Made by a program: the position numbers and the translations under genes
Virus record (IMG/VR): IMGVR_UViG_2974574300_000001
Span: 20,420 to 84,419 of that record
Source: a virus
Taxonomy: Duplodnaviria; Heunggongvirae; Uroviricota; Caudoviricetes
Direction: 5' to 3' (one strand)
DNA: 64,000 nt
Part shown: positions 31,961 to 63,510 of the stretch, piece after piece
Layout: the number at the start of each line of letters is the position of its first letter
Position numbering within the stretch: the stretch's first letter is position 1
Notes under the pieces: model-generated
What the model was told of the DNA's origin: nothing
Database searches by the model: none
What the model saw: the letters and a program-made list of their open reading frames with translations, nothing else

Positions 31961-32218
31961 ATGAAAGATTTAATAGAAAAACATGAGCGACCAATATACT
32001 TGCTCCACAAGCCTCGGAAAACGATGTACTATGTGGGTAGCACAGACATGATGATAAAGCAAAATGATGACTCATGGGTTGCTGGTATCTCTTACATCTC
32101 TACAGCAGATGGTAAAATTTATGCAAGACCTTATGAGATGTTTAACAAAGAAAATTGGGAAGTTTTAGACAGAAAACAAGCCTTAGAAATGATAAAGAAA
32201 GGAGAAATCACACTATGA
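31961..32218 (+). CDS. small hypothetical protein between nrdA and nrdB
   Basis: 85 aa from ATG with ggagag RBS (track ORF 31877..32218 trimmed). Confidence 0.35.
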   Translation: MKDLIEKHERPIYLLHKPRKTMYYVGSTDMMIKQNDDSWVAGISYISTADGKIYARPYEMFNKENWEVLDRKQALEMIKKGEITL

Positions 32219-33288
32219 TTAACCAGCACCCAATCTTTTTAGGTGGTGAGAGAAAAACTTTTGACTCACTTAATAAACACTACCCAAAAATCTTTGAGCT
32301 TTATAAACAACAAAAAGCACAAGATTGGTCAGAAGATGAGTTCCCTTTTGAACAATCACGTCTTGATTTTGAGAGTGTCCCAGCATCAATGTCAGGTGTA
32401 ATGCTTGAGATTCTTAAGTGGCAATGGGAAGCAGACACTCAAGTTGCTAAGAGCTTGGCATTTGCCTTTGCACCCTTTATCTCTGATGACATCTATGCAA
32501 CTGCAATTATGAAGCAGTCTGAGATTGAAAACCTACATGCTCTTACTTACTCAGAGATTGTAAGACAATGTATTAAAAACCCTGAAACAATCTTAGATGA
32601 GATTAACCAGAATGTTGCTGTGCAAGACCGATTAAAAACTGTGAATCGTGTTCTTGAAGAATTACTGGATGAAGGGATAAACTACCGACTGAGTTATGTC
32701 CGTGATTCACTTCTGGACAAAGACCCTTTACACTTCCATAAAGTTATTCTGAAAGGTCTGTTTGCAGTGACTGCACTTGAAGGTATATCTTTTATGGCAT
32801 CCTTTGCATGTACCTTTGCACTTGATGCTCAAGATAAATTTCAGGGTATTGCTCAAGCTGTCCAGAAAATTATGCTTGATGAAATCCTTCACACTAAAAT
32901 TGATATTGAAGTTTTAAAAGAAACTTTAAGAGATGATGAGTGGCAGAAAGCTTTTCAACAAATTCTTCCAGAGATTAAAGTAATCTTAGATGAAGTAGTT
33001 GAAAGTGAAGAAAAATGGTCGTATTATATCTTCTCCGAAGGACGTGCTGTAGTAGGCTTAAATACAAAGCTTCTTCATGAGTGGGTTTACTATAATGCTG
33101 CCCCACTGTATGATATGTTTGGCATTCAAAGAGATTTTGTAGCTCCTAAAGAACCACCTTTGAAGTATATGATTAAGAAGATGGAAATTGATAAAGAGCA
33201 GAATGCTAATCAGGAGCAACAGAACGGTGCGTACCTATTGAATACTGTTGTAGATGATTTGAATAGTGGATTTTTAGAGGTTCCTTAA
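32215..33288 (+). CDS. nrdB: ribonucleotide reductase class I small subunit
   Basis: 357 aa from ATG with aaggag RBS (track ORF 32155..33288 trimmed); ferritin-like R2 character, directly after nrdA. Confidence 0.8.
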   Translation: MINQHPIFLGGERKTFDSLNKHYPKIFELYKQQKAQDWSEDEFPFEQSRLDFESVPASMSGVMLEILKWQWEADTQVAKSLAFAFAPFISDDIYATAIMKQSEIENLHALTYSEIVRQCIKNPETILDEINQNVAVQDRLKTVNRVLEELLDEGINYRLSYVRDSLLDKDPLHFHKVILKGLFAVTALEGISFMASFACTFALDAQDKFQGIAQAVQKIMLDEILHTKIDIEVLKETLRDDEWQKAFQQILPEIKVILDEVVESEEKWSYYIFSEGRAVVGLNTKLLHEWVYYNAAPLYDMFGIQRDFVAPKEPPLKYMIKKMEIDKEQNANQEQQNGAYLLNTVVDDLNSGFLEVP

Positions 33289-33777: not shown

Positions 33778-34974
33778 ATGAACAAAGTACAGATTATTAA
33801 AAAGAATGGCTCACTCGAAGAACCTGATATCAAAAAAGTTTTAGCAGCAGTCACAAAGTCAGCTAACAGAGTTGGTTATAAAGAGCTTCCACCAGATGTT
33901 ACTCAAGCTCTTGAGTCAGCATTTATGAGGATTCTGGTAAAGTCCACTAAGCAGAATAATTTACTCATTTCAGTAAATGATATTCACAGTATTGTTGAGG
34001 GTGCTTTGGCAGAAGTCAATCACGAGATTTATGAGTCTTACTCAACATATAGAAATTACCGTAAAGAAGTTGCTCAGAATTGGGATGAACTCTACCAGAA
34101 GACCAAAGATACACTCTTCTTAGGTGACCGAGAAAACGCTAATTTTGACAGCAGTTTAATTTCTACAAAAGGTTCAATTATTCGTGGTTATCTGACTAAA
34201 GAAATCTTTAAACAGTACCATTTAACACCAGAGGAACTTGAAGCCATTGAAAAAGGGTTTATCTATATCCATGATTTAAGAGACCTAATTTTTGGTGGTA
34301 TCAACTGTTGCCTGTTTGACATTGGTAAAGTCCTGAAAGGTGGCTTTGAAATGTCTGGCATTGAATATTGTGAACCGAAGTCTGTACTGTCAGCCTTACA
34401 GGTTATTGGTGACGTAGTTCTTTCAGCAACTGCACAGCAATTTGGTGGCTTTACTTTAGCAGAGATTGATAAGGTACTTGTGCCGTATGCTAAGAAGTCT
34501 CTACGCTATCATGCTGAGAAAGCAACAGCTTATGGTATTCCTAAAGAACATTACCACAACTATGTCATGGAGCAGCTACAGATTGAATTAACTCAAGGTT
34601 TTCAGTCTCTTGAAATGAAACTAAATACTGTACCTTGTAGCCGTGGTGATTTTGCATTCACAACTTTGACATTCGGGTTGCTTGACTCAGATATGTCTAA
34701 TGAAGATAACCGACTGCAATACATGATTGCGAGCACTCTCCTAGATGTTCGTATGAATGGACAAGGTAAGAGCAAGAAGCCTGTTGTATTCCCTAAATTG
34801 GTTTATATTTATGACCAGAAGAGACACAATGAGAATATCTGTCAAGGCCACCTGTACAGTAAAGCTATTGAGTGTTGCTCTAAAGCTATGTATCCAGATT
34901 TCTTAAGTGTATCTGGACATGGTGCTGTAGCAGAGGCTTTTGAGCGTTCTGGCAAGGTAATTTCCCCGATGGGT
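33778..34974 (+). CDS. nrdD: anaerobic ribonucleotide reductase (class III), 5' exon
   Basis: 399 aa beginning with an ATP-cone-like N-terminus; frame ends ...VISPMG then stop at the proposed intron start. Confidence 0.75.
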
Positions 34975-35716
34975 TAACAGGCTCTATAGCTCATCTAAAA
35001 CGTGCCTAAACAGGGAAACTCTACAGATGTAGACAATCCTGTGCTAAATGATGTACGATGTAAGAAACTATACAACATAGGAGTCTTACATGCCAAACTA
35101 TCACGTCACTGAAGATGGAAAAGTCTTTAGGGAAAATGGTGTAGAGCTTACGCAGTGGAAATCCAACACTGGGTATATGAAAGTGAGGTTTTACGGTAAG
35201 AAGAATCGTGACATGTATGTCCACAGGTTAGTTGCTGAGAAATATGTACCTAACCCAAATAATCTTCCAATTGTAAAACATAAGGACGATAACAAACTAA
35301 ATAACCACGCATCTAACTTAGAATGGGGTACTCATTCTGAGAATGCTAAAGAAGGTTATGAGAACGGATGCTACAAGTTCCACAAGCGTTCATATGCCGT
35401 GAAAGCCACACACAAAGTGACAAAGGAAGTTATTGTTGCTAAGTCAATACGAGAGTTATCCAATATACTTGGACACAATCGCAAGACCATCTCTTCAATA
35501 TTGAAGGGTGTAAAAGAGCATAATAACTTCGAATATGAGTTTGAATACATCTAAATGCCGAACGACTAACCGTGATGAATGTAGCGGTGTAGGGTCAAGC
35601 GACTCGAAATGGTACGCTACTTAGAAATAAGTAGAAGATATAGTCTGGACTTACTGGCGACAGTAAGCAGCTTGAATAAAGCGGGGTAAGCTTAGCGAAC
35701 TTACCTGAACAACAAG
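34975..35716 (+). mobile_element. putative group I intron in nrdD carrying an HNH endonuclease ORF
   Basis: 742 nt insert; upstream exon ends in T, insert ends in G; splicing gives ...VISPMG-CRAFLSPYHNEYGEEFYVGRANIGAVSLNLP and a 714 aa product. Confidence 0.6.
35090..35554 (+). CDS. intron-encoded HNH homing endonuclease
   Basis: 154 aa with VHRLVAEKYV...KHKDDNKLNNHASNLEWGTHSEN (HNH-type His/Asn motif). Confidence 0.6.
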   Translation: MPNYHVTEDGKVFRENGVELTQWKSNTGYMKVRFYGKKNRDMYVHRLVAEKYVPNPNNLPIVKHKDDNKLNNHASNLEWGTHSENAKEGYENGCYKFHKRSYAVKATHKVTKEVIVAKSIRELSNILGHNRKTISSILKGVKEHNNFEYEFEYI

Positions 35717-61119: not shown

Positions 61120-61146
61120 GAAAATAAAAAGGCTCCCGAAGGAGCC
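61120..61146 (-). terminator. rho-independent terminator downstream of the endolysin
   Basis: minus strand reads ggctcc-ttcg-ggagcc followed by tttttatttt. Confidence 0.6.
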
Positions 61147-61156
61147 TATGAAGATA

Positions 61157-61621
61157 TTACTTTGGGTATACACTGTCAAGATAAATGTCAGCTTCCATTC
61201 TACGTCTGTTTTTCAGGCCGTTTGAAGTGACCTTCTTACCTTTGACTGTAACCTTGTTCCACCACTGCATAGCTTCTGCACAACCTACCTTATTACCAGC
61301 GTTGTGGCGCTTGATAAATGTAGAATCCTGCATAGCTGTGATACCGATGTTGTATGTTTCACTTACAAGTGCATCGAACTCGTTCTGAGAAGTTGGAACC
61401 TTGATGGCTTTGTTCACCGCTGCAACGAACTTCTCAACATCTGCGAGAAGATACTGTTCAGCTTGTTCAGCCGTAATTTTCATACCCATCTTAACAGGTT
61501 TTCCGTCAATACGGATTGTACCATACCCGATTGTTGGGATTCCGGCAGAATCTTCGTAAGCCTCTAGCTTAAGACCTTCAAAGAACTTAATAGCTTCTAA
61601 ACCTTTTCTTGAGAGTTGCAT
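61157..61621 (-). CDS. endolysin, phage lysozyme (GH24-type)
   Basis: 154 aa; N-terminal GLEAIKFFEGLKLEAYEDSAGIPTIGYGT matches the phage-lysozyme E...D...T(I/L)GYG signature. Confidence 0.8.
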   Translation of the reverse strand: MQLSRKGLEAIKFFEGLKLEAYEDSAGIPTIGYGTIRIDGKPVKMGMKITAEQAEQYLLADVEKFVAAVNKAIKVPTSQNEFDALVSETYNIGITAMQDSTFIKRHNAGNKVGCAEAMQWWNKVTVKGKKVTSNGLKNRRRMEADIYLDSVYPK

Positions 61622-62505
61622 TATGCCTCCCCTGCTGGGTTAACAGTAACTGTTGCTGCGTTAGATGTTACAGAGCCACCTGCACCAGTAACTACACAGG
61701 TGTAGCTTCCTGCATCAGCAGTGGTTGCACCTTCTTTGGTGTAAGTTGCAGTAGTTGCATCGAGGATGTCTTCCTCCCCTTTCTTCCACTGGTAACCTGT
61801 CGCACCTGTTGCAGTCACTTCCAAGTTAATGCTTCCACCCTCATTGATGGTCTGGCTAGAAGGTTGCTGTGTAATCACAGGCAGTGCGTTGACAGTAACT
61901 GTTGCCGCATCTGAGGTAACACTTGTCCCAGCCTCTCCAGATACAACACAAGTATAGGAGCCAGCATCAGAAGGTGCTACAGACTGTTTTGTGTAGGTTG
62001 CAGATGTGGCACTAGTGATATCCTCACCACCCTTTTTCCACTGATATCCAGTGGCATTGGTTGCAATAACGCTTAGGGTAAGTGTGTCACCTTCATTTAC
62101 TGTTTGATTGGTTGGCTGCTGAGTGATTGCTGGTGGCTTGATAGCATCCTTCAACTTAGCATTCAACATTGAGAACGGATTAACCCTTACCAGCCATTCA
62201 CAATAAATTGTATCAACGTCTTTACCATTGATAATTGCATATTGTAAGTCCATGAAGAAGTCAGAAGTTCTCATTTGAGCACCGATGCTGTAAAGCAACT
62301 CATCACTAAATGGAACTTTGTAGTCTGGTTTGTAGTCAAACTCCTCAACTTCTGCAATATCAGCTTCAGGCCAATACGAACTATAGGTAAGCGGTAAAAT
62401 AGCCTCTTGATATGTTCTAAAATCATATCTCTTACCAGCTTTTACGTTTGCAATGAAGCCCTTCACAAACTCTTTGAAGTCTGGGTAAGTCTTTGCTTTA
62501 ATCAT
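61621..62505 (-). CDS. protein with N-terminal domain paralogous to 62502..62873 plus two tandem Ig-like repeats
   Basis: 294 aa; C-terminal half has two ~85 aa repeats (ITQQP..NEG..L.V.ATGATGYQWKKG.EDI..AT.ATYTK...AGSYTCVV.G..GSVTS.AATVTV). Confidence 0.45.
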   Translation of the reverse strand: MIKAKTYPDFKEFVKGFIANVKAGKRYDFRTYQEAILPLTYSSYWPEADIAEVEEFDYKPDYKVPFSDELLYSIGAQMRTSDFFMDLQYAIINGKDVDTIYCEWLVRVNPFSMLNAKLKDAIKPPAITQQPTNQTVNEGDTLTLSVIATNATGYQWKKGGEDITSATSATYTKQSVAPSDAGSYTCVVSGEAGTSVTSDAATVTVNALPVITQQPSSQTINEGGSINLEVTATGATGYQWKKGEEDILDATTATYTKEGATTADAGSYTCVVTGAGGSVTSNAATVTVNPAGEA

Positions 62506-62873
62506 TTCTTTTTAGCCTCTAAATGTGCGTTTAGTCTAAAATAACCTTTGTGATGCGGAGATACATCACCAACAACAATACCTTTAACCTTATAACCTTT
62601 ACCAATTACATACTGGATATCCATAAGGAATCTTCCAAGTCCAACAATATGGAACATTGGATATAATAGATTCTCAGAGTCTGGAATATTGATTTCGGGT
62701 TTGTAGGTACGCTGTTCGATTGTTGGTGTAATATCTTCTTCAGGCCATTTGCTGAGTCTCCATGTCAAAGGTGTTGGGATAACATCATTAAGGCTGTACC
62801 TTTCACCATTTTGCACGGAATTGATATAGGATTGTAGGAAGCAATAAAAGTCTTTTGCACTCTTAGCTTTCAT
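62502..62873 (-). CDS. paralog of the N-terminal domain of 61621..62505
   Basis: 123 aa; shared features KAK..(Y/K)(P/D)F..F...I.NV..G.RY, WPE.DI and FLMDIQY/FFMDLQY. Confidence 0.4.
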   Translation of the reverse strand: MKAKSAKDFYCFLQSYINSVQNGERYSLNDVIPTPLTWRLSKWPEEDITPTIEQRTYKPEINIPDSENLLYPMFHIVGLGRFLMDIQYVIGKGYKVKGIVVGDVSPHHKGYFRLNAHLEAKKK

Positions 62874-62919
62874 TAAATATCCTTATAAATAGTTAAAGGG
62901 GCATCAGCCCTATTCACAC

Positions 62920-63510
62920 TTAAGCTTTGGTCTTAAGTAGGTTCTTAAGTTTTTTAAGATTCATACTCTCATCAAACTTAAAACCAAATCCATTGACATA
63001 ATCAATGAACTCGGATTTCTTACTGAGTGACAATGCGTAACTCATATCAAAGTTCTTACTTGTTTCTGCGTCTGGACTAGAGTTCACATCAAATGAAATT
63101 TCTGTAGGCTCTTGCTTACTTTTTCTCATATTATCAATCAACAAACATGTATAGTTTGCTGGATAGAAATTTACACTACCATCAACGTAGCTGTACTTAT
63201 TATTATGGATAAGGTTGGAAAATACCTTAAGGAATGTTTCTGAGTCGTGGCAAACAAGTTTGAATTGGCTGGACTCTCCAAGCGCAACTAATGAGTACGG
63301 ACTTTCACTATCAAAGTCATAGTTTGGATTTGATGCCGTCACTGTTACACGCATCAAGTTATTAGCAATAGTCTTCTGTTTAAAAGAATTTTGAACATAG
63401 TGAAGACCCCTCTCACACTGATTGACTAGCTCTTTAAGTAGGTCATTTGCATATGGTGAGTTAATTGATACAGAGCCGTCACTATTGTAATTAAAACTTA
63501 CTGTTAACAT
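62920..63510 (-). CDS. hypothetical protein
   Basis: 196 aa ORF. Confidence 0.4.
   Translation of the reverse strand: MLTVSFNYNSDGSVSINSPYANDLLKELVNQCERGLHYVQNSFKQKTIANNLMRVTVTASNPNYDFDSESPYSLVALGESSQFKLVCHDSETFLKVFSNLIHNNKYSYVDGSVNFYPANYTCLLIDNMRKSKQEPTEISFDVNSSPDAETSKNFDMSYALSLSKKSEFIDYVNGFGFKFDESMNLKKLKNLLKTKA

Follow-up and report, generated by a model that had tools for sequence, protein, structure and literature searches.

The long gene of a paralogous pair in a 64,000-nucleotide stretch of phage DNA (positions 20,420 to 84,419 of the IMG/VR record IMGVR_UViG_2974574300_000001, hereafter the window) encodes the Felixounavirus decoration protein of the capsid hexamer centre, and the short gene next to it encodes a stand-alone copy of the capsid anchor domain of the same protein. 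The two open reading frames (ORFs) are located on the minus strand at 61621..62505 (L, 294 aa, ortholog of Felix O1 gp36) and 62502..62873 (S, 123 aa, a paralog of the anchor domain with no Ig domains), the coordinates being exactly those of the initial annotation, and they overlap by an ATGA stop/start. Taken as a whole, the pair is very probably best explained as the Hex-Dec head decoration protein (L) accompanied by a conserved anchor-only duplicate (S), for which an accessory role is proposed. The window belongs to Felixounavirus: the region is 99% identical to the Salmonella phages SPT-1 and SBA-1781 and 98% identical to Felix O1, and in nucleotide comparison about 250 Felix O1-like genomes were found to carry the region.

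The identity of L was resolved by comparison with solved capsids. In phmmer searches of PDB sequences, L matched 9ncf_S (E=1e-245) and 9c2d_S (E=3e-189), i.e. the 460-aa "Immunoglobulin-like domain protein" of the Bas63 capsid (9NCF chain S) and the 372-aa chain S of the Sf14 capsid (9C2D/9C3A), and it matched phrog_3995 over its full length. The capsid-binding domain at the N-terminus of L (CapBD; aa 1-120, 62146..62505, minus strand) was 95.8% identical to that of Bas63 and 85% identical to that of Sf14, with both contact arginines, Arg79 and Arg107, retained; these were invariant in 13 L orthologs, and both were present in every L protein of the I-set type. Every testable defining feature of the Hex-Dec/gp20 family was found in L (CapBD, contact arginines, Ig domains, and a gene position far from the structural module and directly 5′ of the endolysin gene); in the cryo-electron microscopy (cryo-EM) papers, the decoration gene and the structural module are separated by over 10 kb (PMC12609058, PMC11821841). 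No evidence contradicting the assignment was found, and L is the ortholog of Bas63 Hex-Dec and Sf14 gp20.

In the T=9 capsids of Bas63 and Sf14, cryo-EM placed a monomeric, Hoc-like protein at the centre of the 60 pentamer-proximal hexamers (PMC12609058, PMC11821841). The Bas63 protein was named Hex-Dec, the other hexamers were without density, and the Ig-like string was too flexible to resolve (PMC12609058). Sf14 gp20 was found by mass spectrometry, its CapBD comprises the N-terminal 118 aa, only the pentamer-proximal hexamers are occupied, and salt bridges connect Arg79 and Arg107 with Asp221 in three major capsid protein (MCP) subunits (PMC11821841). Felix O1 gp36 and the window L differ at 8 of 294 residues, and gp36 was identified by mass spectrometry in CsCl-purified virions with a peptide coverage of 44% (PMC3185647), so the ortholog of L is known to be present in virions. 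The initial annotation had offered capsid decoration or a fibre protein; decoration holds, since L is an ortholog of the cryo-EM-solved Hex-Dec/gp20, and fibre does not, the protein being a head protein and neither fibre nor tail.

The Hex-Dec binding mode was assigned to L because it has been demonstrated in close orthologs and the arginines are conserved here. The CapBD of L would thus dock as a monomer into the centres of the 60 pentamer-proximal hexamers, with Arg79 and Arg107 bridging to Asp221 of the MCP, and the two C-terminal I-set Ig domains would point outward, forming a stalk that is flexible and acidic. By analogy with T4 Hoc, this stalk probably allows particles to adhere weakly to surfaces, to mucus or to cells, or controls their aggregation.

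Two Ig-like repeats make up the remainder of L, i.e. aa 124-207 (61885..62136, minus strand; I-set/Ig_3 type) and aa 208-291 (61633..61884, minus strand; I-set type). Aligned with each other, the repeats showed an 84-aa period and 70% identity (E=5e-38), and both contained the motifs GYQWKKG and GSYTCVV, in agreement with the two tandem repeats of about 85 aa that had been pointed out before. The Ig-like fold proposed for them was likewise supported: Pfam Ig_3 (80.7 bits, cut-off 30) and I-set (63.3 bits, cut-off 23.7) each matched two stretches, the Ig_3 match in the first repeat covering residues 124-189, and Ig_2 was also above its gathering threshold. The AlphaFold2 model had a predicted local distance difference test score (pLDDT) of about 95 across both repeats, and the best PDB matches in Foldseek were the tandem Ig domains of Robo, titin and MuSK. 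At the DNA level, Tandem Repeats Finder detected no repeat with a 252-nt period because the repeat units are too diverged, and a DNA-level tandem repeat as a sign of recent expansion was rejected, the repeats being old and about 30% diverged.

The number of Ig repeats varies among relatives, as had been anticipated. In the sampled loci there was one repeat in EC6 and mistaenkt (210 aa), two in the window, Felix O1, Moogle and VpaE1, three in Sf14, Pr103Blw and ESCO56, and four in Bas63. The single Ig domain of the one-repeat ortholog in EC6 was closest to the second repeat of the window (87%). Two disrupted variants were also encountered. In Shigella phage Z31 (locus L003, 2498-3070) two ORFs stand in place of a whole Hex-Dec gene, one of 134 aa that covers the CapBD only and another of 55 aa; provided that the sequence is correct, this phage has neither S nor the Ig display any more, but a sequencing frameshift could also account for the split. 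A metagenomic Hex-Dec variant (P0052, 209 aa) has a frameshift in the first Ig repeat followed by an out-of-frame tail, and represents either an error of assembly or a further instance of lost Ig display.

In PHROG and the majority of GenBank records, L is listed as a tail protein or "major tail subunit", a designation that goes back in Felix O1 to "HK97 major tail subunit" and is repeated in many relatives; phrog_3995 itself is labelled 'tail protein', and L also matches PHROGs of major tail proteins. These matches to major-tail PHROGs (phrog_158, 853, 3575) and to HK97-type proteins were, however, confined to residues 95-208 of L, i.e. the Ig region, and the tail and HK97 labels are explained by shared Ig domains; no tail-tube domain was found outside that region. 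For two relatives, the structure of the N-terminal domain was determined in situ on the capsid, and the authors of the Bas63 study explicitly call the tail annotation an error (PMC12609058). A tail function for L is therefore scarcely tenable, being refuted by the cryo-EM structures 9NCF and 9C2D.

Bas63 Hex-Dec and Sf14 gp20 share with L the N-terminal anchor, the C-terminal I-set Ig repeats, and the gene place between the small paralog and the endolysin gene, far from the structural module. They differ in having four (Bas63) and three (Sf14) Ig repeats against two in the window. The window L also carries Val106 and Asn109 flanking the contact residue Arg107 (window 62185-62190), in place of the Ala106 and Lys109 seen in Felix O1 and almost every other ortholog. 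T4 Hoc resembles Hex-Dec in being a monomer at the hexamer centres with an Ig-like string off the head, forming a non-essential acidic stalk, and the 'Hoc-like head decoration' families of PHROG matched L, in residues 121-292 only, which is the Ig region. Hoc, however, has its anchor at the C terminus, so that the order is reversed in comparison with L, its anchor is topologically distinct from and not detectably homologous to that of Hex-Dec (PMC12609058), and it occupies all hexamers of T4, whereas Hex-Dec occupies 60 of 80. The N-terminal domain of L matched proteins of Ounavirinae only. On account of the reversed domain order and the unrelated anchor, L is Hoc-like in function but not a member of the Hoc family. 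T5 pb10 (PDB 5LXK, 8ZVI) likewise shares the architecture of L and is a monomer at the hexamer centre; its Ig sequence match (E=3e-10) was confined to residues 132-290 of L, and it has a single Ig domain and an anchor unrelated to that of L by sequence. In Kolesnikvirus (Erwinia phage phiEa104 / Fifi318 gp116), the CapBD family is the same (profile E=1e-5 to 2e-7, Foldseek probability 0.98) and the gene order is kept, i.e. a homolog of the upstream gene, the CapBD gene and the lysin gene. There, the display part is one Big_2 domain instead of I-set repeats, and there is no stand-alone paralog, leaving one CapBD place per genome.

The short gene S is known under several names in relatives, i.e. 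Felix O1 gp37/ORF37, Sf14 gp21 (FDI99_gp021), bas63_0125 and VpaE1 gp40. The paralogy with the N-terminus of L noticed in the initial annotation was confirmed by BLASTP (38% identity over 101 aa, E=2e-16). S constitutes a separate PHROG (phrog_4463, unknown function) with cross-matches to that of L, and the S sequence matched residues 3-117 of both solved CapBDs with E-values of about 1e-11 (9ncf_S, E=8e-12). Pfam and NCBIfam gave no match for S. The AlphaFold2 model of S (pLDDT 66.7, predicted template modelling score 0.66), with two predicted helices, retrieved only 9c2d_S and 9ncf_S from the PDB in Foldseek (probability 1.0, TM 0.57-0.59), and only Ounavirinae proteins from BFVD. Since both the sequence and the AlphaFold2 model match the solved CapBDs, S is a stand-alone copy of the capsid anchor domain.

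Compared with the Hex-Dec family, S has the CapBD homology and lacks the other two features, the contact arginines and the display domains; having no Ig domains, it is a relative of the anchor domain and not a Hex-Dec. At the contact-arginine positions, Gly and Gln/His were present in 11 S orthologs from sequenced phages, and the divergent copy in lineage L015 has Gly at the first position and Arg at the second. The motifs FYCFLQ, VGLGxFLMDxQY and SPxHKGYFRLNA were invariant in S, and in their extended forms HIVGLGxFLMDIQY and DVSPxHKGYFRLNA, around the contact positions, almost invariant. Window and Sf14 were 76% identical in S and 85% identical in the CapBD of Hex-Dec.

S was found directly 5′ of L in about 230 of 251 records, with 73-100% identity (tblastn), and the adjacency of the two genes is kept in Felixounavirus, Mooglevirus, Suspvirus and one uncultured lineage. 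A word-indexed search with S returned only S orthologs, of at least 67% identity. When 1.84 billion representative proteins were searched exhaustively with a profile, the CapBD family consisted of only nine clusters, i.e. three of S type (118-123 aa), four of L type with I-set repeats and two of L type with Big_2, and all clusters that could be placed, whether through a named phage relative, the context on the contig or the identity of the sequence, were Ounavirinae-like. No relative of the anchor fold outside the subfamily was retrieved by Foldseek from the PDB or BFVD. A divergent 87-kb metagenomic phage shows the order 195-aa gene, S, L and lysozyme, its S being 45% and its L CapBD 58% identical to those of the window. 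The Big_2 versions are those of the Erwinia phages (Kolesnikvirus), with the homolog of the upstream gene, a single CapBD gene and the lysin gene, and no S. In a neighbour-joining tree, the divergent lineage fell within the S clade as well as within the L clade; on the basis of this tree, the S/L duplication predates the split of the divergent lineage, and it is absent from Kolesnikvirus.

The median ratio of non-synonymous to synonymous substitutions (dN/dS; Nei-Gojobori, 11 phages) was 0.13 for S (0.08 in its C-terminal half) and 0.05 for the CapBD of L, with synonymous divergence saturated in S. Judged from these substitution patterns, S appears clearly to be under purifying selection, yet to evolve faster than the CapBD of L. 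In one lineage the gene has been lost: in REP12 (L004, 2306-2497), Z31 (L003) and EcF-vB (L005), S is a relic without its ATG, with an internal deletion of about 220 nt and with frameshifts, and because the junction is identical in the three phages, a single ancestral loss is indicated. About 19 records appear to share the relic state. In REP12, L is intact and S is a pseudogene, and the relic in this lineage implies that S is dispensable for plaque-forming phages. The pseudogene, together with the lack of any known domain in S, might suggest that S is a chance ORF, or a duplicate that is decaying and has no function. This is, however, very improbable when the gene is intact in about 230 of 251 genomes, its dN/dS is 0.13 at saturated synonymous divergence, lineages with an identity of only 45% have kept it, its Shine-Dalgarno sequence is conserved and its transcript has been detected; the selection analysis refutes the idea of a non-functional duplicate.

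Transcripts of ORF36 and ORF37 in Felix O1, as followed by reverse transcription PCR, both peak late, at 60 min, and those of ORF35 and ORF38 peak at 25 min (PMC3185647). The virion proteome of the same phage comprised 17 proteins, including gp36 and proteins down to 9.7 kDa (gp23), and did not include gp37 (PMC3185647). The 22 virion proteins of VpaE1 are reported to match the Felix O1 set except for gp54, gp58 and gp68, so that the ortholog of S, gp40, is not one of them. Sf14 gp21 was not listed in the supplement of the Sf14 study. In the capsid maps of Bas63 and Sf14, no S was reported and the other hexamers were without density (PMC12609058, PMC11821841), the Bas63 evidence being a capsid map without mass spectrometry (PMC12609058). 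S, the supposed truncated partner of the initial annotation, is thus made late together with L, and its lack in two proteomes and two capsid maps argues against a stable place in the virion.

On these grounds, we tentatively suggest that S is a dispensable, non-virion, late accessory protein that acts transiently on the capsid lattice or on Hex-Dec during head assembly. The face of S equivalent to the capsid-contact face would bind transiently either to the capsid lattice (e.g. immature or unoccupied hexamers) or to Hex-Dec, and S would not serve as a second stable decoration. A more specific version, in which the display-less S sits transiently on hexamer centres or on Hex-Dec, governs the loading of the Ig decoration (e.g. 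on 60 of 80 hexamers) and then leaves the particle, is rather doubtful. Several points weigh against the proposal as a whole. The absence of S from virions is negative data, the Felix O1 list having a cut-off of at least 25% coverage and the VpaE1 list being deduced from the text, as the table is a figure, and a small, weakly bound S could be lost in CsCl. The intact L of the S-less REP12 means that S is not an obligate chaperone of L. The AlphaFold2 model of S is of moderate confidence only, and the binding partners named here are candidates. Charge complementarity was considered as a clue to the partner and rejected, because the isoelectric point of S varies from 5.3 to 9.1 among orthologs and the net charge is not conserved. 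As to L, the adhesive role of the Ig stalk is drawn, for any Ounavirinae phage, wholly from the analogy with Hoc.

Part of the same evidence could be read differently. S shares the fold of a proven capsid-binding domain, its most conserved part is the equivalent of the capsid-contact region, it is expressed late with Hex-Dec, and the three-fold hexamers are left empty by Hex-Dec, so it could be a genuine second capsid decoration, either a 'blank cap' on the 20 three-fold hexamers or the pentons, or a competitor of Hex-Dec that tunes display density, overlooked as small, substoichiometric or weakly bound. We regard this as quite improbable: the contact arginines are replaced in S, smaller and rarer virion proteins of Felix O1 were detected (gp23 of 9.7 kDa, baseplate proteins) when S was not, the VpaE1 set of virion proteins does not include S, and cryo-EM at 3.1 Å reports clean single-orientation density of Hex-Dec and none on the other hexamers. 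The replacement of capsid-contact residues by S-specific invariant motifs, the faster evolution of S than of the Hex-Dec CapBD (0.13 against 0.05), its dispensability in the laboratory and its absence from virions would also fit neofunctionalisation off the capsid, with S binding another target such as a host factor, or serving as a decoy for a defence system able to sense the anchor of Hex-Dec. The late timing and the tight linkage to Hex-Dec nevertheless favour a morphogenetic role over host takeover, S has no match to any PADLOC-independent family with NCBIfam and Pfam also empty, and there is no evidence for any non-capsid partner, which makes such a role unlikely. Finally, a single C3 density in the baseplate of the Bas63 virion, which surrounds the puncture-apparatus tip and shows two helices per 120 degrees (Fig. 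3E / S11 in PMC12609058), has been left unassigned, and S is a late protein likewise without assignment, for which two helices are predicted. Nothing else connects them, the density is ascribed by the authors to a gene of the baseplate module, S is undetected in virion proteomes and phages without it are viable, so that we give this identification almost no credence.

The two genes are followed by the endolysin gene (61157..61621, minus strand; Phage_lysozyme, GH24, Pfam E=6.6e-41), the third gene of a conserved triad S, L and endolysin, and the position of the pair directly upstream of the endolysin gene is as originally described. The junction of L and the endolysin gene is a TAATG overlap. 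Gene order in Felix O1 is the same, where ORF35 is the endolysin, gene 12/ORF36 is L and ORF37 is S. The unit is closed by a strong intrinsic terminator, AGGCTCCTTCGGGAGCCT followed by a T-run (61130..61147, minus strand), the equivalent of which is annotated in phage Mordin. Upstream, a Shine-Dalgarno-like AAGGA, read from the sequence, lies 6 nt 5′ of the ATG of S (62880..62884, minus strand), and a small GC hairpin, GGGCTGATGCCCC followed by TTT (62895..62910, minus strand), is located between S and the upstream 196-aa gene. The hairpin was missed by a consensus terminator scan; in Mordin, the annotation gives a terminator at the homologous site.

At the 3′ end of S (62506..62519, minus strand), a conserved GAGG Shine-Dalgarno sequence for Hex-Dec precedes the ATGA overlap, and conservation of this S/L junction extended to 13 phages, among them the divergent lineage L015. 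A frameshift fusion of S and L, suggested by a near-slippery heptamer T_AAA_AAG at 62506-62517 (minus strand), with Hex-Dec in the -1 frame, was considered and rejected. Conservation of the heptamer breaks down in Mooglevirus, ESCO56, mistaenkt and L015, where that of the GAGG holds, and a programmed fusion is therefore unlikely.

The upstream 196-aa gene (window 62920-63510, minus strand; phrog_4034) is syntenic with the CapBD gene and the lysin gene out to the Erwinia Kolesnikviruses (27% identity), and may belong to the same functional module as these two. The MCP gene was sought in the window for a check of Asp221 and none was present, the gene being located outside; the large ORFs taken as MCP candidates turned out to be ribonucleotide reductases. 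Of these, the ORF at 32155-33288 (plus strand) is a homolog of the ribonucleotide reductase beta subunit and that at 33778-34977 (plus strand) a homolog of anaerobic ribonucleotide reductase, and the large plus-strand block comprises nucleotide metabolism and not structural genes. No tRNA genes were found in the window. A segment of the 147-kb 'Staphylococcus phage SA1' (GenBank GU169904) was 96.8% identical to this Felix O1-like region, and the entry is probably chimeric or contaminated.

L is already known, having been detected by proteomics in 2010 and structurally described in 2025, and the anchor-only paralog S is the only part absent from the literature searched. Neither structural paper mentions such a paralog (the terms "paralog" and "gp21" are absent), although both Bas63 and Sf14 encode S (PMC12609058, PMC11821841), and the literature search gave no paper on a stand-alone CapBD paralog of a decoration protein. 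For L, the value of the present analysis is corrective, in that records of a "tail protein" or "major tail subunit" become those of a head decoration protein with one to four Ig repeats; the variation in Ig number bears on phage display and engineering, and on ideas concerning adherence to mucus and cells. For S, the conserved anchor-only gene provides a testable handle on how decoration is targeted to a subset of quasi-equivalent hexamers, and on the fate of duplicated structural domains, and the REP12/Z31 lineage offers a natural S knockout for comparison.

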